Origin: a virus
Lineage: Duplodnaviria > Caudoviricetes
Reading direction: 5' to 3' (one strand)
Virus record (IMG/VR): IMGVR_UViG_3300029288_000131
Span: 25,175-89,174 of that record
Length of the DNA stretch: 64,000 nucleotides
In this document: positions 51,619 to 64,000 of the stretch, piece after piece
Layout of the letters: the number at the start of each line of letters is the position of its first letter
How positions within the stretch are numbered: the first letter of the stretch is position 1
Made by a program: the position numbers and the translations under genes
The notes under the pieces: generated by a model
Seen by the model: the letters and a program-made list of their open reading frames with translations, nothing else
Told to the model about the DNA's origin: nothing
Database searches by the model: none

Positions 51619-52274
51619 TCTACCAGCTTTCGTCGTTGGTGAGATGTCGTCCGAAGTGTCCTGTCACCATTACGATTTGCTACTACCCTGATGACGAGAA
51701 GACCCGGTGGATTTTGGACTGGTTTTCGTTCCACACGAACTTGAGGCTGAAACGTCTGGCATTGAGCCTACCCGAACTCGGGCGACGGAGCATAGGAAGG
51801 AACCGTGCAGCATTGGCCACCGACGCCAACATCGTATGGTTTGCAGACGTGGACCACGCATGGGGATATGGTTGCTTAGACAGGCTGTCAGAAATGGAGT
51901 GGCCTGAGTCGGCTACTCTTTGCTACCCTAAGCAGGTCATGATTCACAAGGATCATGCAACAGGAGATAGAGCAACAAGCGTTGTGCTTGAAAAGGATTT
52001 GCAATTTGCAGAGATCAAGACAGAGGACTTTGTTCCGAAGTCTTACCGAAAAGCAATTGGTGGAGTTCAGATTGTGCAAGGCGACCTTGCTCGTGATTAC
52101 GGATACTTGGACGGCATAGCAAGGTGGCAAACACCAAGAGACGACGGTTTGCCATTCGGGGACTTCCGAGACGACCTGGCATTTCGCGGTGTTTGTCGAA
52201 TGTACGGGAAGCAGGTGGGCATCGACCTGCCTGGAGTTTATCGCATTAGACACGTAAGGACAACATACCAATGA
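51552..52274 (+). CDS. glycosyltransferase (GT2-like)
   Basis: RSIGRNRAAL, VWFADVD. Confidence 0.7.
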   Translation: MQSIEIVSHCYASQLPQYAGALVYQLSSLVRCRPKCPVTITICYYPDDEKTRWILDWFSFHTNLRLKRLALSLPELGRRSIGRNRAALATDANIVWFADVDHAWGYGCLDRLSEMEWPESATLCYPKQVMIHKDHATGDRATSVVLEKDLQFAEIKTEDFVPKSYRKAIGGVQIVQGDLARDYGYLDGIARWQTPRDDGLPFGDFRDDLAFRGVCRMYGKQVGIDLPGVYRIRHVRTTYQ

Positions 52275-52855
52275 TGCCACGCACTTTAATCTACGAGCCG
52301 TTGGATGATGTAATCAGTGACATCTCTCACGCTGATCTTCTGCTGTTCAGCGGCTCTTACCTTTCCTCCGAGGTGATCAAAGCGGCGGGACGTTCTGACT
52401 ACAGTCATGCAGGTGCCGTGCTTTGGATAGACGACATTCCGTTGTCGGCAGAAGCAACACCTGGAGGGGTGAAGATCTACTATCTACCAACCAGAGTGAG
52501 GGATTACAGGGGACGAATCGATTGGTTTCGTGCCAACGCCAATGAAAGATGGCCCGAGTTCAGTCGGATGGGCACTGGAAGGCACTTGCTCAAGCTGATG
52601 GGCAACTCCTATGGGTTCAGGGGATTCGCCAAGATGGTGCTCCTTCACATGCCGTTGTTCAGATGGTTTGTCCGGCCGAACTTCAACGACGATGACCAGT
52701 TCGATCCAAACCCGATATGCTCAGAGGCGGTTGCTGCTGCTTATTATTTTGGTGGTGGGGTTGATCCCGTACCGAAGCTGAGCAGCAGATACACGGAGCC
52801 GGGAGACTTGGCCCGTTCACCGTTCTTCAAGTACGCTTGTTCATTGGAGCCTTGA
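52271..52855 (+). CDS. permuted papain-like (YaeF/YiiX-type) amidase
   Basis: DLLLF..., SDYSHAG (His first), ICSEAVAAAY (Cys later). Confidence 0.75.
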   Translation: MMPRTLIYEPLDDVISDISHADLLLFSGSYLSSEVIKAAGRSDYSHAGAVLWIDDIPLSAEATPGGVKIYYLPTRVRDYRGRIDWFRANANERWPEFSRMGTGRHLLKLMGNSYGFRGFAKMVLLHMPLFRWFVRPNFNDDDQFDPNPICSEAVAAAYYFGGGVDPVPKLSSRYTEPGDLARSPFFKYACSLEP

Positions 52856-52857
52856 CC

Positions 52858-53562
52858 GTGGTGAGATTCTTATCCGAACAGCAGTTGCTCTTCCTTCACA
52901 TCCCGAGGACGGGAGGCACGTGGATCGAGTCCGCCATCGAGATGACCGTCGGTAAGGGCAACTATGAACGATGGTTGTTTGCCCAACCGGAGTCGATTCC
53001 CAAGAAGCACGGGATGCTTCCTCACCTCAAATCAGATAGGATGAACAGGGCTCGCAACGTCTTCACTTTCGTTCGACACCCCAAGGCTTATTACGAGTCG
53101 ACGTGGAAATATCTCAGCGACATCCGTCGCGTGGCGATGCGAACGTTGCTGTTCAAGGGCAAATACAAGACGGAGTGGAAGTGGCATCCTCATCACACTG
53201 CCGCTGTTCATTACCTCCCGACGTTCGACGATTGGGTGTTCTTGATGACGAAACACGAGCCGATGTGGTACACCCGGATGGTCGAAGCATACATCGGTCC
53301 AGCAGGTGGAGAGTTCGTTCAGTTCATTGGACGTACCGAGTCGTTGGCAGATGACTTCATCGAAGCGATGCACGGCTTCGGCTACGGCAAACAGGTCAAG
53401 CGGGTCGAGAAGAAGCTACGAGCCAAGCCACCCGCCAACACGGCGCAGGGCGTCTGCGAATGGAGTAACGACATGCTGGCCAAAGTGATGGAGACCGAGA
53501 GACCTGTAATCGAGAGGTTCTACGGCGAGGAGAAGCAGCTATGGTTCTCGGAGATTACATGA
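52858..53562 (+). CDS. sulfotransferase-family protein
   Basis: FLHIPRTGGTW, FVRHPKAYYES, IGRTESLADDF. Confidence 0.8.
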   Translation: MVRFLSEQQLLFLHIPRTGGTWIESAIEMTVGKGNYERWLFAQPESIPKKHGMLPHLKSDRMNRARNVFTFVRHPKAYYESTWKYLSDIRRVAMRTLLFKGKYKTEWKWHPHHTAAVHYLPTFDDWVFLMTKHEPMWYTRMVEAYIGPAGGEFVQFIGRTESLADDFIEAMHGFGYGKQVKRVEKKLRAKPPANTAQGVCEWSNDMLAKVMETERPVIERFYGEEKQLWFSEIT

Positions 53563-53861
53563 CGACGGGGGAGGTGGCCGAGCTGCTAGGCGTCTCGACC
53601 ACGCGGGTCCGCCAGCTCGTAACAGGGGGGCAGCTACCGGGCTGCCAGAAGTGGGGTAGATGGTGGATCATCCCAAGTCAATCGGTCAGGATTTGGGCTC
53701 GGGACCGTCGCCGGGCTGGCCGTCCCAGGGGGTCGGGAGAAGGGGCCCTCCGTCGCCGCCTTGGGGTCGCCCAGGGGTTCCCGGGGGGCGACCCCTATTC
53801 CCATACCCCCAACCCCACCCCCGCCTTAAACGCGCAGCCAGGGGGCCGGAGCGGGCGGTAA
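53559..53861 (+). CDS. excisionase/MerR-like helix-turn-helix DNA-binding protein
   Basis: MTTGEVAELLGVSTTRVRQLV..GQLP..KWGRWWII. Confidence 0.8.
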   Translation: MTTGEVAELLGVSTTRVRQLVTGGQLPGCQKWGRWWIIPSQSVRIWARDRRRAGRPRGSGEGALRRRLGVAQGFPGGDPYSHTPNPTPALNAQPGGRSGR

Positions 53862-54064
53862 GATGGGTAAGATAGGGGTTTGGTAGTTGACGGGGTAAGA
53901 TCCCCCCTCTAACCCCTTACCCCATCGGCACTTAGACCAGTCCTACAAACCAAAGTGTCCATCTCGGCTACCCTTCTGGGGGGTGAGAACCTAAGTGCTT
54001 ACCCCATAAGCATTTACGGCGCTCCAAATTGGTCCCCATTAGGGGGGTTGATTATTCTTACCCG
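53857..54064. promoter_or_regulatory. array of six GGTAAG/CTTACC boxes (operator- or iteron-like)
   Basis: GGTAAGAT at 53857, 53866, 53894; CTTACCC at 53916, 53998, 54057. Confidence 0.55.
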
Positions 54065-54075
54065 AACGTAATAAT
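54048..54075 (+). promoter_or_regulatory. possible early promoter
   Basis: TTGATT-N16-AATAAT upstream of the early-type region. Confidence 0.4.
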
Positions 54076-54316
54076 TAGGGTGAACAGGAAAACTAACCCC
54101 CAACCCCAACCCAAGCGCCCCAACGACTGCGGAACCCGGGCATCGGAGGACGGAAAAAACGACAGCGGCCATTGCGGACTGGCCTCAAAGCGGGACACAC
54201 GGGGATGCAGACCGGAGAGACGCGGCAGCACCCCCTGGCTACCACCAAAGGACCCCCCGATAGGCTCGTCAGGGGTGACGGTGGGGCGTAAGACATGAGC
54301 TCTCCTCAGAATTGAC

Positions 54317-54400
54317 TCCCCCGACGCGGGCTGGTAACAACCGGCCACCCCGGATTCGCAACCGGGCGGGGGACTTCGGCGGGACTACTTCGGTCCTGCC
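54317..54400 (+). ncRNA. unassigned structured RNA motif B, copy 1
   Basis: TCCCCCG/CGGGGGA closing stem, two inner hairpins (loop ATTCGCAA), then ACTTCG-loop hairpin. Confidence 0.55.
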
Positions 54401-54420
54401 ACTGCCGAGGAGACCGAAAG

Positions 54421-54585
54421 ATGAAGAAAACCAGTAGCGAGAAGATGGCAGAGCGTAACAAGAAAGCTAATCAGAAGCGACGACGGGACCAATTGATCAT
54501 CGGGGATCTCCGATTGCAAGTGCGGGATGGAAAGATGACGGCTGCTGAGGCTCTTCTCTCTCTCACAAAGAAAAGGGACAAATAG
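54421..54585 (+). CDS. 54-aa basic protein
   Basis: GAGGAGACC RBS; MKKTSSEKMAERNKKANQKRRR...; not in track. Confidence 0.6.
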   Translation: MKKTSSEKMAERNKKANQKRRRDQLIIGDLRLQVRDGKMTAAEALLSLTKKRDK

Positions 54586-54590
54586 TTCAC

Positions 54591-54660
54591 TGCCCCGTAG
54601 CGTAACGCCCAGGAGTCGCGCCCTGGGCGGGGCACTTGCCCAACCCACTTCGGGTTGGGT
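54591..54660 (+). ncRNA. unassigned structured RNA motif B, copy 2
   Basis: TGCCCCG/CGGGGCA stem, inner hairpin with loop AGTCGCGC, then ACTTCG-loop hairpin. Confidence 0.55.
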
Positions 54661-54683
54661 GTCTAGACCGAGGAGACCGAGAG

Positions 54684-55058
54684 ATGACTACTGCTACCTT
54701 CAGCGTTGGCGACCGCGTGGGCGTTTACCGCATGCACAGCGGTGACATCATCAATGCTTCGTTCGGCGTCGTGGCGAAGATCGACGGCCGTGGCTGGACC
54801 GTCCTGGAGGATGGCCGGAAGTTCGATCGAGACGGCAAGCGTCGGATGCCTGGCCAGGTCCGGGGGTGGAACGCCGACCGCCTGTGCGACGCCGAGTGGC
54901 TCCAGGCCAAGCTCGACGAGAAGGCCGCCGCCAACAGGAAGCACCGCACCGTGCAGGACCTGATCCTGTACCTCGAAGGTCGCCGCACCGGGTGCGGTAA
55001 CTACGTCATCGAGGCCAGGCACAAGGAGGAGCTGATCCGCCTCGTCAACGAACTGTAG
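54684..55058 (+). CDS. hypothetical protein
   Basis: GAGGAGACC RBS, ATG 54684. Confidence 0.7.
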   Translation: MTTATFSVGDRVGVYRMHSGDIINASFGVVAKIDGRGWTVLEDGRKFDRDGKRRMPGQVRGWNADRLCDAEWLQAKLDEKAAANRKHRTVQDLILYLEGRRTGCGNYVIEARHKEELIRLVNEL

Positions 55059-55121
55059 CCGAAACGCCCTTCGGGGCGTCGCGGGGAAACTGAACCAACC
55101 CCGCCTGACGATGGCAGGTTC
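55058..55121 (+). ncRNA. type II hammerhead ribozyme 1
   Basis: GCC-GAAAC-[GCCC ttcg GGGC]-GUC cleavage after 55080-[GCGGGG/CCCCGC]-CUGACGA-U-GGC; pseudoknot GAACC (55092-96) with GGTTC (55117-21). Confidence 0.92.
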
Positions 55122-55167
55122 CATCCGTTCGTTCCAGAGCCGGTTCAAACCGGCAAGGAGACCAGTC

Positions 55168-55527
55168 ATGTCGAAGAAGCAGAAGCAGGGCAACGTCGCC
55201 GAGACCACGGAAGCCACGGCCGTCAAGAATGCCAAGAAGGTCCACGTCGCCTATCCCGGCGACCGCCCGCTGACCAGCGTGCCCGTGGACTTCAGCGCCT
55301 CGAAGCACAAGCGGCTGATCCCGAAGGACTTCGCTACCAAGGCGCTGTACTTCCGGCACGCGGCCAACATCCACGACGCCCGCCGCGTCCGCTGCCTGGA
55401 CCGCGCCGAGAAGCTGGAGGCTCGGAAGGACGGGGCGAAGGCGCGCCTGGAGAAGCGGCTGGCCAAGGCCAGGGCAGCCGCTGAGAAGGCGGCCGCCGAG
55501 CTGAAGCGGATGGAGGCGGCCGAATAG
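55168..55527 (+). CDS. basic K/A-rich protein
   Basis: AAGGAGACC RBS. Confidence 0.7.
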   Translation: MSKKQKQGNVAETTEATAVKNAKKVHVAYPGDRPLTSVPVDFSASKHKRLIPKDFATKALYFRHAANIHDARRVRCLDRAEKLEARKDGAKARLEKRLAKARAAAEKAAAELKRMEAAE

Positions 55528-55547
55528 GCTGACCCCCAAGCAACGAC

Positions 55548-55619
55548 GGCGAAACGTCCGGCCCCATTGGCCGGACGTCGTACAGGGGTGGCTCCCCTGT
55601 ACCTGACGACGCCAAGCCA
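55548..55619 (+). ncRNA. type II hammerhead ribozyme 2
   Basis: GGC-GAAAC-[GTCCGGCC/GGCCGGAC]-GUC cleavage after 55579-[GTACAGGGG/CCCCTGTAC]-CUGACGA-C-GCC; pseudoknot TGGCT with AGCCA. Confidence 0.93.
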
Positions 55620-55642
55620 TTCTAGCAAGAGGAGACCAAGAG

Positions 55643-55837
55643 ATGACCAGAAAAGACGAAGCCCACAAGGAAGCGGTAGAGTTGAAGAAGCTGGAAGACT
55701 ACTGCCGTGAGGGCTGGGGAGACCCCTGCAAGGATGGACACGACTGGAAGGATGCGTCCTCCGCCGGTCCAGACAGCGGCAACGCCGACGTGGAGTGCCG
55801 CCGGTGCGGTGAGTACCGTAGCATTCCGCTCTACTAA
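55643..55837 (+). CDS. small zinc-binding protein
   Basis: C..GHDW...CRRCG; GAGGAGACC RBS. Confidence 0.65.
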   Translation: MTRKDEAHKEAVELKKLEDYCREGWGDPCKDGHDWKDASSAGPDSGNADVECRRCGEYRSIPLY

Positions 55838-55889
55838 CGGCCATCTGCGTAGGGCACCGGGAGGCCGGTGCCCCTCGTTGATTTCCGTT
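55836..55889 (+). ncRNA. long irregular hairpin, divergent motif A member
   Basis: AACGG/CCGTT closing, GGGCACCGG/CCGGTGCCC apical stem. Confidence 0.5.
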
Positions 55890-55913
55890 CCTACTGGTAG
55901 AGGAGACCAAGAG

Positions 55914-56105
55914 ATGAAAGCGATCAAGACGTGGGTGATGTCCATCATCATCCGGGCAGACTGCCCGGTCGGATCGGTCGAGCAGCTCTACTCGCTGGTC
56001 GTTCGGGCACAGAACCACCTGGCCGCCCGCCGTGCCGCCCTGGAGTTCTGCTGGCGTCAGGGGTGGCTGGTTACTGGGTTCGAGCACGAGGAAGTCCAAG
56101 TGTAA
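55914..56105 (+). CDS. hypothetical protein
   Basis: GAGGAGACC RBS. Confidence 0.6.
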   Translation: MKAIKTWVMSIIIRADCPVGSVEQLYSLVVRAQNHLAARRAALEFCWRQGWLVTGFEHEEVQV

Positions 56106-56155
56106 CGATCTTCCTTCCAGCCCTTCTCGCTGAAGGGCTGGGGATGAGGACCGTT
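56104..56155 (+). ncRNA. unassigned hairpin motif A
   Basis: AACGATCTTCCTTCCAGCCC...GGGCTGGGGATGAGGACCGTT. Confidence 0.55.
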
Positions 56156-56181
56156 TGCTTACTCAATTCTGGGAGATCAAG

Positions 56182-57666
56182 ATGAACCTGATCGAGAGTC
56201 TGAAGCATGCCCGACGAGCGGGCGTGCCGCTGGTGGCCATCGCCACCGCGGACCCTGCCGCCACCATCCAATCGGTGGCAACGGGTGTCAACAACGCCCC
56301 GATGATCGTATGGGACGTCCAGCGTGGCGTCCGCCCGGTCAACGAGCGGGGAGAGGAAGCGATGGCAGTGATCAACATCGAGAACACCGTGGGCAACCCC
56401 CTCGGCCTTCTCGACGAGGCCGTTCGGCTGCCCCAAGACACGGTGCTGTTCGTGATGAACGCGCCGAAGGTCACGGAGGCCGCCGGGTTGCCCTGGCTGC
56501 AGGGCGTTTGGAATTTACGAGACCAGTTCAAGCGGGACCGGCGAATGCTGATCCTGCTCGGACAGGACTCGACCCTACCTGCCGAGCTGGAGAACGACGT
56601 AGTGGTGTTGGATGAGGCGTTACCGACCGCCGCGGAGCTGGAGCAGATCGTTCGAGAGATCGATGCTGCGGCCTCAGATGCATGTGTCACTCGGCCGACG
56701 GCGGACGACGACACGATTCGACGTGCCGTCGAGGCCGTCATGGGATTGGCAGCCTTCCCCGCCGAGCAGGCCGTGTCAATGGCCGTTCGCAAGGATGGGA
56801 TCGACCTGAACCATCTCTGGGAGGTCAAGAGGTCGATGATCGAAGAGACACCTGGATTGGGTGTCTGGCGGGGTGGCGAGACGTTCGCCGACATCGGTGG
56901 ACTGGACAACGCCAAGGACTACTGCCAGTCGAAGATCACGGGCAAGCGTAACTACGGCGCAGTGGTCTTCATCGACGAGATCGAGAAGCTGCTAGCAGGT
57001 GCCACCGAGGGCACCGGAGACAGCTCCGGCGTGAGCCAGGGATTCTTGCAAGTCCTGCTGACGTACATGCAGGACAACAACGTCGCTGGCATGATCTTCG
57101 TCGGCCACCCTGGAGCGGGGAAGTCGATGCTTGCCAAGAGCATCGGAGCCGAAGCTGGCGTCCCCACCATTGCACTCGACACGAACGCGATGAAGGGCAG
57201 CTTGGTGGGTGAGTCCGAGGGACGCATCCGCCGGGCACTCAAGGTGGTGACGGCGGTGAGCAACGGCCGTCCGTTGTTCGTGGCTACGTGCAATCGAATC
57301 GCCACCCTGCCCCCCGAACTCCGCCGCCGGTTCACTGGTGGCACGTTCTTCTTCGACTTGCCTGACGAAGAGGAGCGGGAGGTGATCTGGTCGTACTACA
57401 TGAAGAAGTACGACCTGCCGAAGCAGAAGCGCCCGAACGACACGGATTGGACGGGCGCTGAAATCAAGGCTTGCTGCGAGGGTGCTTGGGAGCGAGACGT
57501 GCCGCTGATCGATGCTGCACGGTTCGTCGTCCCGGTAGCGAAGGCCGATCCTGAACGGATCTCCCGCCTTCGCAGCGAAGCGGCTGGTCGATACATCTCG
57601 GCCAGTCACAGCGGGACCTATCGTCAGCCGCAAGCCCTGGAGGGCAAGCGGAGGGCTGTTGGATAA
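56182..57666 (+). CDS. AAA+ ATPase (Ycf46-like, degenerate N-terminal plus active C-terminal domain)
   Basis: TFADIGGL, GHPGAGKSM, FIDEIEK, VATCN, PPELRRRF, FFDLP, TGAEI. Confidence 0.88.
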   Translation: MNLIESLKHARRAGVPLVAIATADPAATIQSVATGVNNAPMIVWDVQRGVRPVNERGEEAMAVINIENTVGNPLGLLDEAVRLPQDTVLFVMNAPKVTEAAGLPWLQGVWNLRDQFKRDRRMLILLGQDSTLPAELENDVVVLDEALPTAAELEQIVREIDAAASDACVTRPTADDDTIRRAVEAVMGLAAFPAEQAVSMAVRKDGIDLNHLWEVKRSMIEETPGLGVWRGGETFADIGGLDNAKDYCQSKITGKRNYGAVVFIDEIEKLLAGATEGTGDSSGVSQGFLQVLLTYMQDNNVAGMIFVGHPGAGKSMLAKSIGAEAGVPTIALDTNAMKGSLVGESEGRIRRALKVVTAVSNGRPLFVATCNRIATLPPELRRRFTGGTFFFDLPDEEEREVIWSYYMKKYDLPKQKRPNDTDWTGAEIKACCEGAWERDVPLIDAARFVVPVAKADPERISRLRSEAAGRYISASHSGTYRQPQALEGKRRAVG

Positions 57667-57727
57667 CGGTCTCCCCTCCGCCCTCCCAGTGCTCGTAGCA
57701 TTCGGGAGGGCGGGGCTGGTGATCGTT
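57665..57727 (+). ncRNA. unassigned hairpin motif A
   Basis: AACGGTCTCCCCTCCGCCC...GGGCGGGGCTGGTGATCGTT. Confidence 0.65.
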
Positions 57728-57756
57728 TCTATTACTCTGGTTTGAGGAGACCAAGC

Positions 57757-58608
57757 ATGTCAACAGTTTTCGACAAGACGGTCTGTCTGACCGTCACGTT
57801 CCACCTGCCCGGTGCCCACCGGCGAGCCGACCTGACCGGCATCGAGACGGATGCCGACAAGGACGTGCTCAAGCTGACGAAGCGGATCTTCGACAGCGCG
57901 TCGTACAAAGACGCACAGCGTCTGGCGGGCGACACTCGCAAGTGGCTGCGAAGCCGTTCGCTGCCGTCACCGCTGGCAGAGGGGTCCTACTTGATCCCGA
58001 AGTCCCTGGTGGACGAGGTGGTGCAGAAGCTGGACGACGTCGTGGTGGTCTACAACGAGCTCGGAGACGAGTTCGCGGCGGAGTACCCCACCATCGTCGA
58101 GGAGTGGAAGGAGCGGCTTCGCAGCCAGTACGACGCCCGGAACTACCCGAACGTCCAGGAGGTTCGCAGCCGGTTTCGCGTGAGCCGGATGTTCGTGGAC
58201 TTCCAACTGGCGAGGCCGGACCAGATCGACCAGTCCTCCGAATTGCAGGAGGCGATGGTCGAGATCAAGGCCGCCCTTCGGTTCGGCCTGCTGGGGCTGG
58301 TTCAGAAGCTCGCCTCCATGTTGGGCGAGCGGAAGGACGGTAAGAAGAAGGGGCTGCGGGGCGACGCGGTGGAACGGTTCAAGGAGTGGATGGAGCTGCT
58401 CCCCGCCCGTAACATCCTGGACGACGCAGAGCTGGTCAAGGTGGCTGCTCAGGCCCGGGCACTGATGTCCGGCAAGTCGATGGACGACCTCCGGGACATC
58501 GGTCAGGTGCGGGACGAGGTGCGGCAGGGGATGGAAGAGGTGGCCGAGTCGCTCAAGGGCTTGGTCAAGGACCTGCCTTGCCGGGCGTTCAGCCTGGACG
58601 ACGAGTGA
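57757..58608 (+). CDS. DUF3150-like protein
   Basis: Helical 283 aa; GSYLIP, FAAEYP, NYP.VQEVRSRF; family recalled, not searched. Confidence 0.55.
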   Translation: MSTVFDKTVCLTVTFHLPGAHRRADLTGIETDADKDVLKLTKRIFDSASYKDAQRLAGDTRKWLRSRSLPSPLAEGSYLIPKSLVDEVVQKLDDVVVVYNELGDEFAAEYPTIVEEWKERLRSQYDARNYPNVQEVRSRFRVSRMFVDFQLARPDQIDQSSELQEAMVEIKAALRFGLLGLVQKLASMLGERKDGKKKGLRGDAVERFKEWMELLPARNILDDAELVKVAAQARALMSGKSMDDLRDIGQVRDEVRQGMEEVAESLKGLVKDLPCRAFSLDDE

Positions 58609-58609
58609 A

Positions 58610-58679
58610 GTCGAATCCGATCCAGGGACGGGTCGGACGCAGCGGGTTGGGTTCCCGCTGCCTGATGATGACAGCCCAA
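58610..58679 (+). ncRNA. type II hammerhead ribozyme 3, core variant U15.1-A16.1
   Basis: GTC-GAAT-[CCGATCC/GGGTCGG]-AC cleavage after 58638-[GCAGCGGG/CCCGCTGC]-CUGAUGA-U-GAC; pseudoknot TTGGGT with GCCCAA. Confidence 0.85.
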
Positions 58680-58696
58680 GTAGAAGGAGACCGACC

Positions 58697-59008
58697 ATGC
58701 CGTGCTGGGAAGTGAGAACGGTCAGCGTGGAGTTCAAGGCCGACAACCGTGCCTTGCTCAACGCTGCTATCGAGGAGTTGGGATGGCGACACCAAGTTGC
58801 CAGCAACGGAGAGGTGATCATCAACGGTGGTGACATCACCCTCGACCTCGTTCGAGAACGAGCCACGGTCAGGGACAGCCAGCAAGCCGCCCTGAACCAG
58901 CTCAAGCAAGCCTACAGCCGCCAGGCGGTGAAGTCTGCCGCCAAGCGGTTCAACTGGGCCTGCAAGATGCAGGGAAACAACGCCACCGTTACCAAGATGA
59001 ACTGGTGA
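58697..59008 (+). CDS. DUF1257 (Ycf35)-like protein
   Basis: LLNAAIEELG...LKQAYSRQAV..AAKRFNW. Confidence 0.55.
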   Translation: MPCWEVRTVSVEFKADNRALLNAAIEELGWRHQVASNGEVIINGGDITLDLVRERATVRDSQQAALNQLKQAYSRQAVKSAAKRFNWACKMQGNNATVTKMNW

Positions 59009-59022
59009 AAGGAGACCATGCG

Positions 59023-59235
59023 ATGAAGAACCAATTCAAGATCGAGATCTTGGAGGACGGGACCATTAGCGTAGAGACCGAGTCGTTCGACCCGCAAGTC
59101 CATGCCCAGGCAGACGAGCTGGTCCGACACCTCGGCAAGCTGATGGGTGGCAAAGTGGAGATTCGCGAGAAGCGATCCCACGCCAAGCAGCACAGCCACG
59201 GGCACGACCATGCCCATCACCACCACCATCACTGA
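59023..59235 (+). CDS. DUF2997-like protein with His-rich tail
   Basis: IEILEDGTISVET...LGKLMGG; HSHGHDHAHHHHH. Confidence 0.55.
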   Translation: MKNQFKIEILEDGTISVETESFDPQVHAQADELVRHLGKLMGGKVEIREKRSHAKQHSHGHDHAHHHHHH

Positions 59236-59238
59236 GCC

Positions 59239-59299
59239 AACGGCCTCCCCTCCGCCCCCGATGGACTTACACCCGTCGGGGGTGGGGATGGTGATCGTT
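59239..59299 (+). ncRNA. unassigned hairpin motif A
   Basis: AACGGCCTCCCCTCCGCCC...GGGTGGGGATGGTGATCGTT. Confidence 0.65.
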
Positions 59300-59321
59300 C
59301 CTCCAACAGAAGGAGATCGTG

Positions 59322-59471
59322 ATGAAGAGTAGTGACAGGTTGCTTGAGATGCAGAAGTGGGGAGTGCGGCGGGAGGTGAAGCATCGGCAGTCGAAGCGGG
59401 TGCACCACGCCACCAAGGGCACGCCACCCCGTGGCCGGTCGTCGAACGTGCCGTCGAGCAAGAGCAAGTGA
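59322..59471 (+). CDS. 49-aa basic peptide
   Basis: AAGGAGATC RBS; not in track. Confidence 0.45.
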   Translation: MKSSDRLLEMQKWGVRREVKHRQSKRVHHATKGTPPRGRSSNVPSSKSK

Positions 59472-59559
59472 CGGTCTCCCCTCCGCCCCTGTGACCGATG
59501 CTTGTAGTCGGCCATGTTCTACGGGCGCTTTCGTTACAGGGGCGGGGATGGTGATCGTT
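59471..59559 (+). ncRNA. unassigned hairpin motif A with long apical insert
   Basis: ACGGTCTCCCCTCCGCCC...GGGCGGGGATGGTGATCGTT. Confidence 0.65.
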
Positions 59560-59588
59560 TTCTAGCAACCCAACCGAAGGATTTCCTT

Positions 59589-59927
59589 ATGGGCAAAGCA
59601 AAGCACAGCCCGTTGCCGTGGCGCCTCGGCGACCTGGCTGACTCGATCGTGTGCGACAGCCTCGACGGGCTGCCGTGCAAGTCCACCCGGTACTACGGCG
59701 GCACTTTGGTATGCGAGTCATGTCAGATAGCGGACCGGGAATTCATCATCCGAGCTGCCAACTGCCATGATATGTTGGTGGAGGTCTTGGAGCAGTACGC
59801 GTTGCCATACTCGGATGACGAACTTGACCAGCTTGCCATGACGGCCAGCGGACGGGGCGAAATCTCGCGGGAAGATGCACAGCGTGAGGTCCGCCGCCGT
59901 GCCGTCATTGCCAAGGCCACCAGCTAA
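59589..59927 (+). CDS. hypothetical phage protein
   Basis: KHSPLPW...VCE...REFIIRAANCHD.L pattern common in phage early genes. Confidence 0.65.
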   Translation: MGKAKHSPLPWRLGDLADSIVCDSLDGLPCKSTRYYGGTLVCESCQIADREFIIRAANCHDMLVEVLEQYALPYSDDELDQLAMTASGRGEISREDAQREVRRRAVIAKATS

Positions 59928-59957
59928 CCGCCGGCAACGCCGGCAGGAGACCAAACA

Positions 59958-60143
59958 ATGAAGATCATGGGAGCTGAAACCGTCGTGACGTTTGCGAAGG
60001 GATACGCCCTTCGCGATCCCGATACGGGACGCTGGCATCTGGTGGGCTACGACGCCCGTAAGTCCTTCCGTCACCTGTGGGACGTGAGGTCCTACGTTCG
60101 ACGCCTGACCCGCTACCGCCGCCAGCACGGGCAGGAGGTGTAG
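59958..60143 (+). CDS. hypothetical protein
   Basis: AGGAGACC RBS. Confidence 0.55.
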   Translation: MKIMGAETVVTFAKGYALRDPDTGRWHLVGYDARKSFRHLWDVRSYVRRLTRYRRQHGQEV

Positions 60144-60144
60144 T

Positions 60145-60525
60145 GTGACAGCAACACAAGTCGAATCGAGATGGGGACCAATCGTCTCCCAATACAACTC
60201 GACCCGAACGCCGGAGATCGTGTACGATGTTCGGTATAAGGGCGGCAAGTACTCTTGCAATTGCCCGGGCTGGCGATTCCGCAAGTCCTGTCGTCACGTC
60301 CGACACGCTCAGGAGAACAACATCACCGACGCAGCTCCCACGTATGAAATGCCGTGGGAGGAGAAGGTGTTGGAGGAGGTACTTGCGGCTGCCGCCGTCC
60401 TGGTCAACAAGACCGCCCAGCAACGCATGCTGACCGTGCTGAAGAAGTACCTCGGGCATCCCAAGCCCGAGGCGACCATGCCAGCACCCACCACCGGAGC
60501 GATTCGGATGTTCACGTTCGACTAG
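60145..60525 (+). CDS. SWIM zinc-finger protein
   Basis: Y.V......SCNCPGW.FRKSCRHV. Confidence 0.8.
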   Translation: MTATQVESRWGPIVSQYNSTRTPEIVYDVRYKGGKYSCNCPGWRFRKSCRHVRHAQENNITDAAPTYEMPWEEKVLEEVLAAAAVLVNKTAQQRMLTVLKKYLGHPKPEATMPAPTTGAIRMFTFD

Positions 60526-60529
60526 GAGG

Positions 60530-60871
60530 ATGACTATGACGAGGATGTGGATGGTGCCTCCGAAGTTGCTTTGCCGTCAGCACCTGCTTGGCGAGCACAA
60601 GGAGTTACATCAATTGGTAGGGACAATTCGAGCCGGGCGGCTCTCGGTGATCAAAGGACACGCCCGGCTCGGGCAGGTACAGTGCCGCAGCATCATAAAG
60701 CGGCACGAAGAACTGGTTGCTGAAATGATCAAGCGTGGATACAACCACGCATCGCCCCTCGGGGACTTCGAGCAGTTGGATCTCGGTGAGGTGGACATTG
60801 AAAAGAACTTGGCAGACCTTCGACACCGTTGTGAGCGGTGCCGACATCTTCAGCAAGGAGACCAGAAATGA
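60530..60871 (+). CDS. denV: pyrimidine dimer DNA glycosylase/endonuclease V-like
   Basis: MTRMW.VPP..LCRQHLLGEHKELH, RHEELVAEMIKRGYNH. Confidence 0.85.
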   Translation: MTMTRMWMVPPKLLCRQHLLGEHKELHQLVGTIRAGRLSVIKGHARLGQVQCRSIIKRHEELVAEMIKRGYNHASPLGDFEQLDLGEVDIEKNLADLRHRCERCRHLQQGDQK

Positions 60872-61023
60872 ACTTCATGGACAAGGTCAATGAACTGTTG
60901 AAGCAGGTGAAGTCGATTGATGTTTTAGAGTGGGAGAGTGCTCCAAAGCAACACATTGAGGTGCTTCGGGACTGCTTGGTGGAGACTCTCGAATTGATCA
61001 AGGACCTCAACCCGGAGCCGTAG
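60868..61023 (+). CDS. hypothetical protein
   Basis: AAGGAGACC RBS, ATGA coupling. Confidence 0.5.
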   Translation: MNFMDKVNELLKQVKSIDVLEWESAPKQHIEVLRDCLVETLELIKDLNPEP

Positions 61024-61032
61024 GAGGATGCA

Positions 61033-61251
61033 ATGATCGTGAAGAAGAAAGATCGAGTCTCTGCTCTTGAGATAGACCTGACTGGCCCAGACGGTAACGC
61101 CTTGGTACTGCTGGGCACCGCCGGACGCTTGGCGAAGCGTCTCGGACTCGATGTCAAGTCCATCCAAGACGACATGATGTCGGGAGACTACGAACACCTG
61201 ATCGAGGTGTTCGACAAGCACTTCGGAGACTTTGTTACGCTACTTCGCTAA
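61033..61251 (+). CDS. conserved small phage protein
   Basis: IDLTGPDGNA..LLG...MMSGDYEHLI. Confidence 0.7.
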   Translation: MIVKKKDRVSALEIDLTGPDGNALVLLGTAGRLAKRLGLDVKSIQDDMMSGDYEHLIEVFDKHFGDFVTLLR

Positions 61252-61268
61252 CCAGAAGGAGGTTCGAG

Positions 61269-61451
61269 ATGAAGCACGGATACCACATGACGTGCAAGGG
61301 CGAGAGCTACTGGGGCATCCCGTTGATGATGGACGGGAAGCCGACGAAGCAGATCTCTCGTGACCTGCACAAGATGCGGCCCAAGCTCAAGAAGCGATGG
61401 GCCACTCGGAACGTAGGACGCTACCGTCCCTGCAAGGTGGTAGTGGTGTAG
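61269..61451 (+). CDS. hypothetical protein
   Basis: AAGGAGG RBS. Confidence 0.55.
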   Translation: MKHGYHMTCKGESYWGIPLMMDGKPTKQISRDLHKMRPKLKKRWATRNVGRYRPCKVVVV

Positions 61452-61458
61452 GGGAACA

Positions 61459-61531
61459 GGTCCCGTAGCTCATTGGTTAGAGCGGCGGCCTTATAAGCCG
61501 CGTGTAGCAGGTTCGATTCCTGCCGGGACTA
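61459..61531 (+). tRNA. tRNA-Ile (anticodon UAU), no encoded CCA
   Basis: GGTCCCG/CGGGACT acceptor, GCTC/GAGC D-stem, GCGGC-CTTATAA-GCCGC anticodon arm, GCAGG-TTCGATT-CCTGC T-arm. Confidence 0.93.
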
Positions 61532-61566
61532 ATGGACGGTAAGATCCTCTAGCAAGGAGACCAAGG

Positions 61567-62067
61567 ATGATAGCACCTCAAGCGTGCATCGACACCTACC
61601 AAGATGTCGAACGGATGCTCTGCCAGTTGTGCTGGCGGTTCGTTGAGAAGAACGGAGGGGACTTTGAGGAAGCAAAGTCCGTTGCCAACGTGGCATTCGT
61701 TCGGGCGTTCTTACGGTTCGACAGCAGCAAGGCACAGTTCACGACGTGGGCATGGTGGGCGATCACCCACGACCTGCTGAGCTGGAAGCAACGGGAGTCG
61801 AAGTGGGGAGTACGTCATGTCCTGAGAGAGGAACTGGACGGCAACCCCGCCCCGTGCAAACGCCAGCACATCGCCGAACAAGTGTCGGAAGATGGGAAGG
61901 CTATCGTTTCTATGGTGATCGAATCCTACGACGACTTCCGGCACGTCCTGAGACGACACGGTGCGTCCCAGGTGCGTAGGAACATTACCCGCCGTTGCAA
62001 GGCATGGGGCTGGACGGTGGGCAGGATCAGCGATGCCTTTGCCGAGCTGAGGGAGGTCTGCCGATGA
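61567..62067 (+). CDS. sigma-70-family-like factor
   Basis: Region-2-like DFEEAKS.A.VAF.RA..RFDSSKAQFTTWAWW.I. Confidence 0.7.
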   Translation: MIAPQACIDTYQDVERMLCQLCWRFVEKNGGDFEEAKSVANVAFVRAFLRFDSSKAQFTTWAWWAITHDLLSWKQRESKWGVRHVLREELDGNPAPCKRQHIAEQVSEDGKAIVSMVIESYDDFRHVLRRHGASQVRRNITRRCKAWGWTVGRISDAFAELREVCR

Positions 62068-62282
62068 AGATGCGATTGTTCCTGAAGAAGTTCGGGGGCA
62101 AGTGGTGGATAATGGGTCGAGACGGTGAAGGGCCGTGGGGGCCCTATGATAATAGAAAAGAGGCAAACGAGGACCGTCAGGGCATCGTTCGAACAATGTT
62201 GAACGAAGATGTCCCCGGCTACGCTACGGTTGACAGGCCCGAGGAAATCGAAGAGAGAAAAGCCAGGCATAGAAAATGCTAA
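62064..62282 (+). CDS. hypothetical protein
   Basis: GGAGG RBS; WWI.......GPYDNRKEA. Confidence 0.6.
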   Translation: MKMRLFLKKFGGKWWIMGRDGEGPWGPYDNRKEANEDRQGIVRTMLNEDVPGYATVDRPEEIEERKARHRKC

Positions 62283-63625
62283 CGCCGATCCACTATCAAA
62301 CGGAATGCCTGAACGAAATGGACTGGTTCGGTGGTCGGGTTCTGTTGGCCGCCGACATGGGCCTAGGCAAGACTGCGATGGCTCTCTGGTTCCTAGAACG
62401 TGATAAGTCCAAGCGACTGCCAGCCGTTATCGTTTGCCCGGCGTCCGTCAAGTACGTCTGGGAATACGAAGCTCAACAAACGATCGGCATACGCCCGGAC
62501 GTTGCCGAGGGACGTAAGCCCCCGCGTGGTGGATGGTCCGACAACAACGACATCATTGTCATCAACTACGACATCCTGCCGTGGTGGCTAATACACCTGA
62601 AGCAGCGTCGAGCCAGGACCGTCATCATTGATGAATGCCAATTCACAATGAATCCCAGGGCCAAGAGGACGAAGGCCGTGCGGGAGTTGTGCAAGGGGGT
62701 CAAGCATGTACTAGCCCTCAGCGGCACACCGTTGCTCAACCGTCCCATCGAACTGTTCCCGGTCCTGAAACTGATCTGCCCCAGCAAGTTCTCTGCCAGA
62801 GGTGCTTTCGCCCATCGGTATTGCAAACCCAAATGGACGCCGTGGGGATGGCAGTTCAATGGAGCAGACAACGTAGAGGAGCTGCACGAGAAGCTTCGAG
62901 ACAGCTGCATGGTGAGACGTCGAAAGGTTGACGTGCTGCCAGACCTGCCTGAGAAGTTGAGACGGGTGATACCGTTGCCCTTGAGCAGCGACAGTGAGTA
63001 TCAACTAGCCAGCAAGGACTTCCTGAACTGGCTGCGACGACGTGATCCCTCTGCAGCACAACGTGCCAGCAAGGCAGAAGAGCTGTCCCGCATAGGGTAT
63101 TTGCTGAGATTGTGTGCTCGGTTGAAGCTGCTGTCAGCCGTCGAATGGATCAACGATTGGCTGTACCAGACGGATGAGAAGCTGGTGGTGTTTGCCAGAC
63201 ATGCCAAGATGGTGGAGGCGTTGAAACGACGGTGCAAGGTGGAGTCGGTTGTGGTGGACGGTTCTGTCACTGGCAGGCTGCGCAAGGCGGTGGTAGACAA
63301 GTTTCAAGAGGACAAGCGAACTCGGTTGTTCATCGGGAACATTCATGCTGCTGGTGTGGGCATCACTCTGACAGCGTCCAGCACCGTGGTATTCACTGAG
63401 ATGGCTTGGCGACCGGCAGACCATACCCAAGCGGAGGACAGGTGTCACCGGATCGGAACGAAGCAAACGGTTTGGTGTTACTACCTCGTGGCACGGGATA
63501 CGATAGAGCAACGATTGTGTGAGGTGATACAGAAGAAGCAATCCGTCATAAGCAACATACTGGACGGAAAGGATGTGGGTGATTTGGACGTGTTCGACCA
63601 ATTGCTAAAGGAGATGAAGAAGTGA
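62276..63625 (+). CDS. SNF2/SMARCAL1-like helicase
   Basis: LLAADMGLGKT, IIDECQ, LSGTPLLNR, VRRRK, AAGVGITLT, QAEDRCHRIG. Confidence 0.93.
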   Translation: MLTPIHYQTECLNEMDWFGGRVLLAADMGLGKTAMALWFLERDKSKRLPAVIVCPASVKYVWEYEAQQTIGIRPDVAEGRKPPRGGWSDNNDIIVINYDILPWWLIHLKQRRARTVIIDECQFTMNPRAKRTKAVRELCKGVKHVLALSGTPLLNRPIELFPVLKLICPSKFSARGAFAHRYCKPKWTPWGWQFNGADNVEELHEKLRDSCMVRRRKVDVLPDLPEKLRRVIPLPLSSDSEYQLASKDFLNWLRRRDPSAAQRASKAEELSRIGYLLRLCARLKLLSAVEWINDWLYQTDEKLVVFARHAKMVEALKRRCKVESVVVDGSVTGRLRKAVVDKFQEDKRTRLFIGNIHAAGVGITLTASSTVVFTEMAWRPADHTQAEDRCHRIGTKQTVWCYYLVARDTIEQRLCEVIQKKQSVISNILDGKDVGDLDVFDQLLKEMKK

Positions 63626-64000
63626 ACCACAAAGATCTGTTAGAACGACTGGGTGCTTGCGTCGAAGCACAGCGATGGTACGACGGCCGCGACAGCCGCG
63701 AGGCGTGGGAAGTCTGCGAACGCGGCGACTGGCTGTTGTGGGTCGCCGCGAGGCTGGGCGTGGACCGCAAGCTGCTGGTATTGGCCGCGTGCGACTGCGC
63801 CGATTCGGCGCTGAGGCATGTCCCAGACGGCGAGGATCGCCCGCGCAAGGCCATTGAGGCTGCCCGGGCATGGTGCCTGGGAGAGGCGAGCATCAATGAG
63901 GTACGCGCCGCCGCCCACGCCGCCTGCGCCGCCTACGCCGCCGACGCCGCCGCCTGCGCCGCCGCCCGCGCCGCCCACGCCGCCGCCCGCGCCGCCGCCC
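63622..64000 (+). CDS. Imm5-like-domain protein with Ala-rich repeats (runs off window)
   Basis: GTG 63622; RGDWLLW, LAACDCA, DRPRKAIEAARAW, then AAX repeats; no stop in window. Confidence 0.7.
   Translation, partial: MNHKDLLERLGACVEAQRWYDGRDSREAWEVCERGDWLLWVAARLGVDRKLLVLAACDCADSALRHVPDGEDRPRKAIEAARAWCLGEASINEVRAAAHAACAAYAADAAACAAARAAHAAARAAA

Follow-up and report, generated by a model that had tools for sequence, protein, structure and literature searches.

Hammerhead ribozymes and two further families of structured RNA in the spacers of a phage gene array

The window studied here, meaning the whole stretch of DNA that was analyzed, is the last 64 kb of an 89,174-bp IMG/VR virus record (IMGVR_UViG_3300029288_000131, Caudoviricetes; CheckV completeness 94%). 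Between 54.3 and 59.6 kb, it carries an array of genes, g1 to g11, with spacers that contain RNA structures of three kinds: three type II hammerhead ribozymes (HH1 to HH3), five imperfect hairpins of one family (motif A) and two copies of a second structure (motif B). It can be proposed that the array belongs to an operon in which the hammerheads would serve as processing sites, motif A would act via host enzymes and motif B would be a leader element. We lean towards this reading, with a confidence only a little better than even.

Spacer plan of the gene array

All long open reading frames of the window lie on the + strand. The gene starts called here were also obtained independently on an ENA assembly that is 99.96% identical. 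The genes of the array are the following:

54421-54585, + strand: g1, 54 amino acids, no family
54684-55058, + strand: g2, 124 amino acids, no family
55168-55527, + strand: g3, 119 amino acids, with HH1 and HH2 on either side; 86% identical homolog on contig L061
55643-55837, + strand: g4, 64 amino acids; with A1, an insertion or deletion relative to L061
55914-56105, + strand: g5, 63 amino acids
56182-57666, + strand: g6, AAA ATPase, 494 amino acids (PF00004)
57757-58608, + strand: g7, DUF3150 protein, 283 amino acids (PF11348)
58697-59008, + strand: g8, 103 amino acids
59023-59235, + strand: g9, 70 amino acids
59322-59471, + strand: g10, 49 amino acids
59589-59927, + strand: g11, 112 amino acids

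Gene calls and folding together give eleven gaps in 53862-59588, ten of which hold an RNA structure on the sense strand. On folding, only the 14-nucleotide (nt) gap between g8 and g9 (59009-59022) is without structure. Whole-gap fold z-scores range from -1.4 to -4.8 and, in six of the ten structured gaps, none of 200 shuffled sequences folded as well. An earlier note on this DNA had counted ten structured spacers out of eleven, with motif B twice, hammerheads three times and motif A five times; coordinates, fold z-scores and the independent gene calls all agree with this count. The elements are the following:

54317-54400, + strand: motif B1, upstream of the g1 ribosome-binding site (fold z-score -4.25; paralogous to B2)
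54591-54660, + strand: motif B2 (folding; paralogous to B1; covariance model R3)
55058-55121, + strand: HH1, type II hammerhead; predicted cut 55080/55081; loop I GAACC pairs with tail GGUUC; RF02276 30.4 bits, E 0.007
55548-55619, + strand: HH2, type II hammerhead; predicted cut 55579/55580; loop I UGGCU pairs with tail AGCCA; RF02276 37.1 bits
55836-55889, + strand: motif A1, 20-bp imperfect hairpin, a diverged family member (folding, motif A model)
56104-56155, + strand: motif A2, 21-bp hairpin (folding; ortholog at L061:686-750)
57665-57727, + strand: motif A3, 27-bp hairpin (folding, consensus pairing)
58610-58679, + strand: HH3, type II hammerhead with GAAU (U15.1-A16.1); predicted cut 58638/58639; loop I UUGGG pairs with tail CCCAA (structural parse)
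59239-59299, + strand: motif A4, 23-bp hairpin (folding, consensus pairing)
59470-59559, + strand: motif A5, 37-bp hairpin with a long variable apex (folding, motif A model)

A common plan emerges from these gaps: a stop codon, a stable RNA structure, a linker with a strong Shine-Dalgarno sequence (GGAGAC) and the next start codon. The stop codon is overlapped by A1, A2, A3 and A5; its last base is part of stem II in HH1, and A4 begins 4 nt past it. At the other side, 17 to 47 nt separate the end of every element from the next start codon, and the Shine-Dalgarno sequence lies inside this linker. That most elements begin at or just after a stop codon and end before the next ribosome-binding site, as previously noted, is therefore borne out. 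The description of the elements as intergenic spacers holds for all but B1, which is located at the 3' end of a 559-nt leader with no + strand gene called upstream. Finally, every hammerhead, motif A and motif B copy of the 89-kb genome lies within 54.3-59.6 kb.

Hammerheads and their counterparts in related phages

HH1, HH2 and HH3 are genuine type II hammerheads located between cistrons. They were compared by explicit structural parse, a MAFFT alignment of seven hammerheads being too poor for model building. The core C3-U4-G5-A6-N7-G8-A9 is present in each of them, as CUGACGA in HH1 and HH2 and as CUGAUGA in HH3. In HH1 and HH2, the parse gives GAAA, the A15.1-U16.1 pair and C17. In HH3, it gives GAAU, the U15.1-A16.1 pair and C17, with GAC as the cleavage triplet. 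Thus, all three hammerheads of the earlier note parse as type II, with the correction that HH3 is a core variant having no Rfam score. A natural hammerhead with U15.1-A16.1 self-cleaves at reduced efficiency (PMC3088659), and type II hammerheads located close to phage genes undergo cleavage in vivo in D. vulgaris (PMC8782182). A pattern scan of both strands of the 89-kb genome, also permitting U at position 15.1, gave nothing beyond HH1-HH3.

Stem III has 6, 10 and 8 bp and stem I has 6, 9 and 8 bp in HH1, HH2 and HH3, respectively, and both stems are closed by loops. Stem II is open and consists of 3 bp, with one bulged base after A9 in all three copies. Loop I and the 3' tail form a pseudoknot of five Watson-Crick pairs in each copy, with a sequence that differs from one hammerhead to the next; shuffled tails match the 5-bp loop I pairing in 30 to 198 of 2000 trials per copy. 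Because of the type II topology, a hairpin is expected at both ends created by the cut. The predicted upstream product would carry the stem III hairpin at its 3' end, 22-52 nt past the stop codon. The stem I hairpin would form the very 5' end of the predicted downstream product, at a distance of 58-87 nt from the next start codon. A small extra hairpin (55139-55154, + strand; folding) is located between HH1 and the ribosome-binding site of g3 and has a counterpart in the L061 contig.

L061 is a 1.6-kb Joint Genome Institute (JGI) contig located via its 86% identical g3 homolog, and its coding DNA is about 90-97% identical to that of the window. It contains an ortholog of HH2 at the same junction (Rfam score 30.1 bits) in which the core, loop I and tail are unchanged, and in which the sequences of stems III and I are rewritten with pairing intact. 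The ortholog of A2 (L061:686-750), also at the same junction, scores 50.6 bits with the motif A model R2, which was not trained on L061. Hence, the stems of HH2 and A2 diverge far more than the flanking genes and keep their pairing, a signature of selection on structure. Orthologs of A3, HH3 and A4 were also sought, and no g7 or g8 homolog above 60% identity was found except identical copies of the same phage. Three records represent this same phage, with 99.7-100% identity over the aligned parts (L062, L063 and L064, that is ENA ERZ27247363, ENA ERZ27247346 and Logan SRR8542065). None of the differences between them and the window falls inside an RNA element. The same phage is also present in JGI 3300037067.

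This pattern bears on the possibility that the elements are near-functionless spacer modules, spread by duplication or recombination at the ribosome-binding-site module and travelling with accessory genes of fast turnover. The g4+A1 unit (window 55620-55900, compared with L061:470-490) is absent from L061. The ends of this indel lie in direct repeats of the ribosome-binding module AGGAGACCAAGAGATGA and not in the hairpin, which suggests gain or loss of the unit by recombination at these repeats. In addition, A3, A4 and A5 have in common arms of 19-21 nt that are 86-95% identical, relatives with 71-74% ATPase identity are devoid of elements at orthologous junctions, and g1-g5 have no homologs in those relatives. 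All this would be expected of such modules. However, in L061 the stems of HH2 and A2 have diverged without loss of pairing, of the core bases or of the internal loop, and the pseudoknot partners vary among the hammerhead copies yet stay complementary. We therefore regard functionless spacers as improbable, and favor the reading in which the elements act on the transcript.

More distant relatives were collected by a g6 protein search, which gave about 50 related loci. The conserved core across these relatives comprises g6-g7-g8-g9 and g18-g20, and g1-g5 and g10-g17 have no homologs in them at E below 1e-4. Prophage-like relatives occur in metagenome-assembled genomes (MAGs) of Nitrospirales and Armatimonadetes at only 39-45% identity; one hit at 75% comes from a 2.7-kb contig that was binned into a Syntrophomonadaceae MAG. 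Upstream of g6, in the variable part, type II hammerheads are found in L004, L005 and L032 (two copies, 62 and 68 bits). The corresponding array of L003 carries six hepatitis delta virus (HDV)-like ribozymes, each before a ribosome-binding site (GGAGCGGAAA):

L003:1791-1866, HDV-like ribozyme
L003:2450-2530, HDV-like ribozyme
L003:4226-4298, HDV-like ribozyme
L003:4890-4966, HDV-like ribozyme
L003:5909-5981, HDV-like ribozyme
L003:9505-9574, HDV-like ribozyme

These copies show a 7-bp P1 (its first pair being G-U in three of the five aligned), a 3-bp P3, an L3 loop UCCACGY, P1.1 and P2. In their alignment, 88% of the cells are paired, compared with 40-51% in slid controls. All score below the Rfam threshold, the best being 28 bits for one copy with HDV-F-prausnitzii. 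One weak HDV-like candidate, read by eye, was also found at L023:9102-9173 (17.5 bits, E 0.039 with R1, the covariance model derived from L003). An Rfam scan at gathering score over a further 150 kb of relatives gave no ribozyme.

In five of the six L003 copies, as well as in the L023 candidate, the predicted cut site comes 0-2 nt after the end of a stable hairpin, and in the L003 copies the ribosome-binding site comes after the ribozyme. As modeled, two unrelated ribozyme classes would thus have the same outcome, namely a hairpin on the upstream 3' end and a structured 5'-OH end downstream. Since homologous arrays of relatives carry either hammerheads or HDV-like ribozymes, ribozymes between cistrons recur in this phage group.

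Two further observations were made in the relatives. A possible type III-like hammerhead (GUC cut site, CUGAUGA, GAAAC) lies at 2995-3050 of L015, a relative with 74% ATPase identity; its stem II comprises just 1-2 bp, and it is not matched by Rfam. Long hairpins directly past stop codons are present in the same module at L004:164-237 and 2263-2344, L032:3076-3149 and L015:2045-2131. Some of them are repeated within their contig, and none is similar in sequence to motif A.

The families of motifs A and B

The five imperfect hairpins that the earlier note had counted as motif A do form one real family, with A1 as a diverged member. With the L061 copy, six members are known. None of the hairpins is branched, and their internal loops are of the 1x1 and 1x2 kinds. 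A2-A5 and the L061 copy have in common the base (A/G)ACG...CGUU, which includes the last two bases of the stop codon, and a 1x1 mismatch. The 1x2 internal loop is kept, with C opposite AU in A2, A4, A5 and the L061 copy and opposite CU in A3. The upper stem and apex are variable yet paired: among 20 consensus pairs, 6-7 are changed on both sides. In A3-A5, the + strand folds 9-16 kcal/mol better than the - strand by means of G-U pairs. Because these pairs favor the fold of the + strand, the structure of motif A is an RNA feature.

This strand asymmetry also bears on the idea that motif A is a DNA-level recombination site, attC-like or other, marking the boundaries of gene cassettes. As imperfect palindromes that immediately follow short variable genes and are bordered by AAC (5') and GTT (3'), the hairpins recall such sites, and g4+A1 does behave as an insertion or deletion unit. 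However, the folding is asymmetric as expected of RNA, no integrase match was obtained for those proteins of the region that were scanned against Pfam, and the indel ends are in the ribosome-binding-site repeats rather than in the hairpin. A recombination site is accordingly extremely unlikely in our view. The core-site consensus of attC is RYYYAAC and GTTRRRY. The flanks of motif A do not fit it, and the attC-like reading was rejected.

The motif A hairpins are very probably not ribozymes. Neither a junction nor a pseudoknot was found in them, and they match no Rfam ribozyme family at E up to 10 in a scan of 52000-64000. To our knowledge, no class of self-cleaving RNA is as simple as a helix interrupted only by loops of 1-2 nt. 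Motif A would be better explained as a host RNase III site, a 3' stabilizer or a leaky terminator than as a ribozyme equivalent. An RNase III substrate typically offers some two helical turns (at least 20 bp) of mostly uninterrupted double-stranded RNA, often containing an internal loop, and A1 to A5 have 20, 21, 27, 23 and 37 pairs. By analogy, their length and internal loop would fit an RNase III substrate of the type found in the early region of T7.

As a side observation, the consensus Shine-Dalgarno sequence of the phage, GGAGACC, is exactly complementary to the 5' arm of motif A (GGUCUCC, CCUCC). In the minimum-energy fold, 56107-56114 pairs with 56172-56179, so that the g6 Shine-Dalgarno sequence is paired with an upstream pyrimidine run. 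Likewise, the upstream sequence CUCUCCUC pairs with the g1 Shine-Dalgarno sequence (54301-54307 with 54408-54414). Pairing of the g1 and g6 Shine-Dalgarno sequences could correspond to translational masking or merely to a common ancestry of the arms.

Motif B consists of a 7-bp outer helix continuous with an inner hairpin, followed by ACUU, a second hairpin and the ribosome-binding site. In B1, the outer helix (54317-54323/54367-54373) surrounds an extra hairpin and the hairpin with loop AUUCGCAA, and the second hairpin is 54378-54400. In B2, the outer helix is 54591-54597/54628-54634, the inner hairpin has the loop AGUCGCG and the second hairpin is 54638-54660. The conserved loop of the inner hairpin is A(U/G)UCGC. 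The L001/L057 contig, whose ATPase shares 52% identity with g6, holds a third copy in a long non-coding region. In the three copies, 97% of the cells pair, compared with 31-62% in slid controls, and three pairs are changed on both sides. When the spacers were searched against the relatives with blastn, a 16-27 nt core of motif B was matched in L001, all else being chance 12-mers.

Covariance models of motif A (R2) and motif B (R3) were run over about 470 kb of relatives and the whole genome, and they gave no further member of either family. Pattern scans of viral contigs for motif A returned no true match, only one chance hit in G+C-rich sequence, and those for motif B returned the L001 contig alone. 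Three other contigs were considered for motif B and rejected: the L058 hit corresponds to a tRNA T-arm read in antisense, and neither L059 nor L060 is supported by the model.

The earlier note had proposed that motifs A and B may be functional equivalents of the hammerheads. In one form of this idea, one or both would be undescribed self-cleaving RNAs doing the same job. They do sit where ribozymes sit in this phage and its relatives, and new ribozyme classes have been discovered by their proximity to known ones (PMC6765202, PMC5737381). Moreover, the helix order of motif B recalls P1, P3/L3 and P4 of HDV-like ribozymes: a P1-like helix of 7 bp and a P3-like hairpin are present, both covary in the three copies, and the loop of 7-8 nt is conserved. 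However, HDV-like ribozymes are double pseudoknots made of P1, P2, P3/L3, P1.1 and P4, with a catalytic C in J4/2, and motif B, as read from the sequence, has a P2 of 3 bp at best and no partner for P1.1. Motif A is unbranched, with loops of 1-2 nt. The covariance models of twister, twister-sister, pistol, hatchet and hairpin ribozymes match neither motif in 52000-64000 at E up to 10. Motif B has no match to any Rfam ribozyme family at that E, and R1 finds nothing in the window. Only three B and six A copies are known. The equivalence is thus not supported. A more specific version, with motif B as an undescribed self-cleaving or ribozyme-derived leader RNA related to the HDV-like ones by descent or convergence and motif A as a second new hammerhead-like device, appears very doubtful, and self-cleavage in place of the hammerheads by either motif or both is marginally more doubtful still.

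A different division of labor would restrict processing to the hammerheads, with motif A as leaky intrinsic terminators or attenuators that step down expression and motif B as an antitermination RNA of the HK022 put type, which acts in cis. Each hairpin starts at the stop codon, has at its base an AA paired with UU, a trait of bidirectional terminators, and is followed by a tail rich in pyrimidines (UUUC, UUCC, UUUUC, UUUGC). Motif B, for its part, occurs twice and at the start of the array only. Nevertheless, no motif A hairpin is listed in a + strand scan for intrinsic terminators (five or more U in eight after a G+C-rich hairpin), whereas hairpins elsewhere in the genome have 4-6 U immediately after the stem. 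In addition, the conserved genes g6-g9 further downstream would be starved by five serial terminators that have no promoter-like site in between. Attenuation of this kind is a minority possibility that deserves consideration, and we retain as preferred the reading in which motif A acts via host enzymes and motif B as a leader.

Proposed operon and transcript processing, and comparison with known systems

In this preferred reading, the stretch would represent the part nearest the promoter of a long operon that runs rightward through small accessory and replication-type genes of an uncultured 89-kb phage. The hammerheads would cut the transcript after C17, at 55080, 55579 and 58638, with HH3 probably cutting more slowly owing to its U15.1-A16.1 pair. 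Each cut would give an upstream message terminated by the stem III hairpin and a 2',3'-cyclic phosphate, and a downstream message whose 5'-OH would lie on the first base of the stem I hairpin. With a hairpin at each new end, both ends may be protected and the cistrons able to decay at separate rates. For motif A, the likeliest mode of action would depend on host enzymes: the hairpins would be processed by an enzyme of the RNase III type or would hold up 3' exonucleases, and they might in addition be leaky terminators. Motif B would be a leader element ahead of the first two genes. The analysis itself shows the folds and where they lie, the compensating changes that conserve them in a close relative and the return of other ribozymes in homologous arrays; that the RNA is cut in vivo, that its ends are protected and that host nucleases take part is what we infer. 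The idea of a self-processing polycistron is plausible for the hammerheads, and its core has already been published (Perreault et al., 2011); its extension to motifs A and B is unsupported.

Several points weigh against this reading. HH1, with 30.4 bits, is under the gathering score of RF02276 (Hammerhead_II), which is 37 bits, and HH3 gets no Rfam match at E up to 10. In L002 and L015, two relatives with 71-74% ATPase identity, the g7-g8 and g8-g9 junctions are only 4-16 nt long and no notable hairpin is found at g6-g7. Because these orthologous junctions are without elements, the elements are dispensable for the gene module. Furthermore, the stems of motif A are followed by only 2-4 U, two of them paired to AA, so that partial termination is possible, and the role proposed for host RNase III is only an analogy with T7.

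Upstream of the array, an HTH_17 gene (53559-53861) is followed by the 559-nt leader (53862-54420). The latter contains one weak promoter candidate:

54048-54075, + strand: sigma-70-like promoter candidate (TTGATT-16-AATAAT), the sole promoter-like site in 53000-62000, where shuffled sequences average 1.5

The non-coding part of the leader at 53862-54300 also has three repeats of the CTAACCCC/TTACCCCA type at 53909, 53991 and 54093 (spacing of 82 and 102 nt). This part of the leader, which includes the sigma-70-like site, could hold promoters or iterons. Downstream, the module comprises the AAA ATPase (g6), the DUF3150 protein (g7), a DenV-like pyrimidine-dimer glycosylase, a tRNA-Ile(UAU), a sigma-70-like protein and an SNF2 helicase. 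From its context, "early" would be a reasonable label for the array. From about 51% in the late genes before it, the G+C content climbs to 60-64% in the studied stretch (59-64% over 53000-60000), and this jump suggests a mosaic origin of the module. A DNA search of the phage collection with the region as query gave no match. The tRNA-Ile gene (anticodon UAU, 61459-61531) directly precedes the gene of a sigma-70 region 2 protein (61567-62067), and the linker before the latter, CUAGCAAGGAGACC, is a repeat of the linker found after HH2 and after A5. Neither RNase III nor RtcB was found among the phage-encoded proteins.

The role of self-cleaving ribozymes in bacteria and phages is still an open question (PMC6765202). 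The present phage group offers a compact natural comparison, in which one gene module carries type II hammerheads, HDV-like ribozymes, plain long hairpins or nothing. The ribozyme-bearing spacers are predicted to leave a hairpin on both cut products, which points to separate control of stability for each cistron rather than to cutting per se. The group would also provide a small set of constructs for a test of this cistron-stability idea in a laboratory host. The locus adds to what was known a mixture of hammerheads with two lineage-restricted structure families on one spacer plan, a naturally occurring hammerhead with U15.1-A16.1, and an exchange of devices across a homologous module. No literature link between DUF3150 and ribozymes was found.

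For motif A, the best functional analog may be the hairpins of phage T7. The early genes of T7 have RNase III processing hairpins in between, and the cut hairpin remains on the upstream message as a 3' stabilizer. Like these, the motif A elements are long imperfect hairpins with internal loops between cistrons. However, the two have no sequence relation, and the present phage has no RNase III gene.

With HDV-like ribozymes (RF02682 and relatives), the likeness lies in the homologous arrays, with the six copies of L003 and the one L023 candidate. The window itself has none according to the R1 model, and motif B shares with them the P1/P3/P4 order alone, being devoid of P2 and P1.1.

For the hammerheads, the closest precedent is the clusters in prophages, where multiple hammerheads flank single genes and where long phage transcripts were proposed to be cut into gene-length mRNAs (Perreault et al., 2011, PMC3088659). 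A 2019 review repeats this suggestion, with the purpose still undefined (PMC6765202). Both in those clusters (RF02276) and in the present array, the topology is of type II, loop I forms a pseudoknot with the 3' tail, stem II is short and the ribozymes lie between small phage genes. In contrast to them, the hammerheads here alternate with two families of non-ribozyme structures on the same spacer plan, and all three have one bulged base between A9 and stem II. The locus is thus a good further example of the published ribozyme-punctuated phage operon. As in the reported co-location of ribozyme classes near phage-type genes (PMC6765202, PMC5737381), different RNA devices occupy equivalent genomic positions; here, however, the swap takes place within one homologous gene module across related phages, and plain hairpins are among the devices exchanged.

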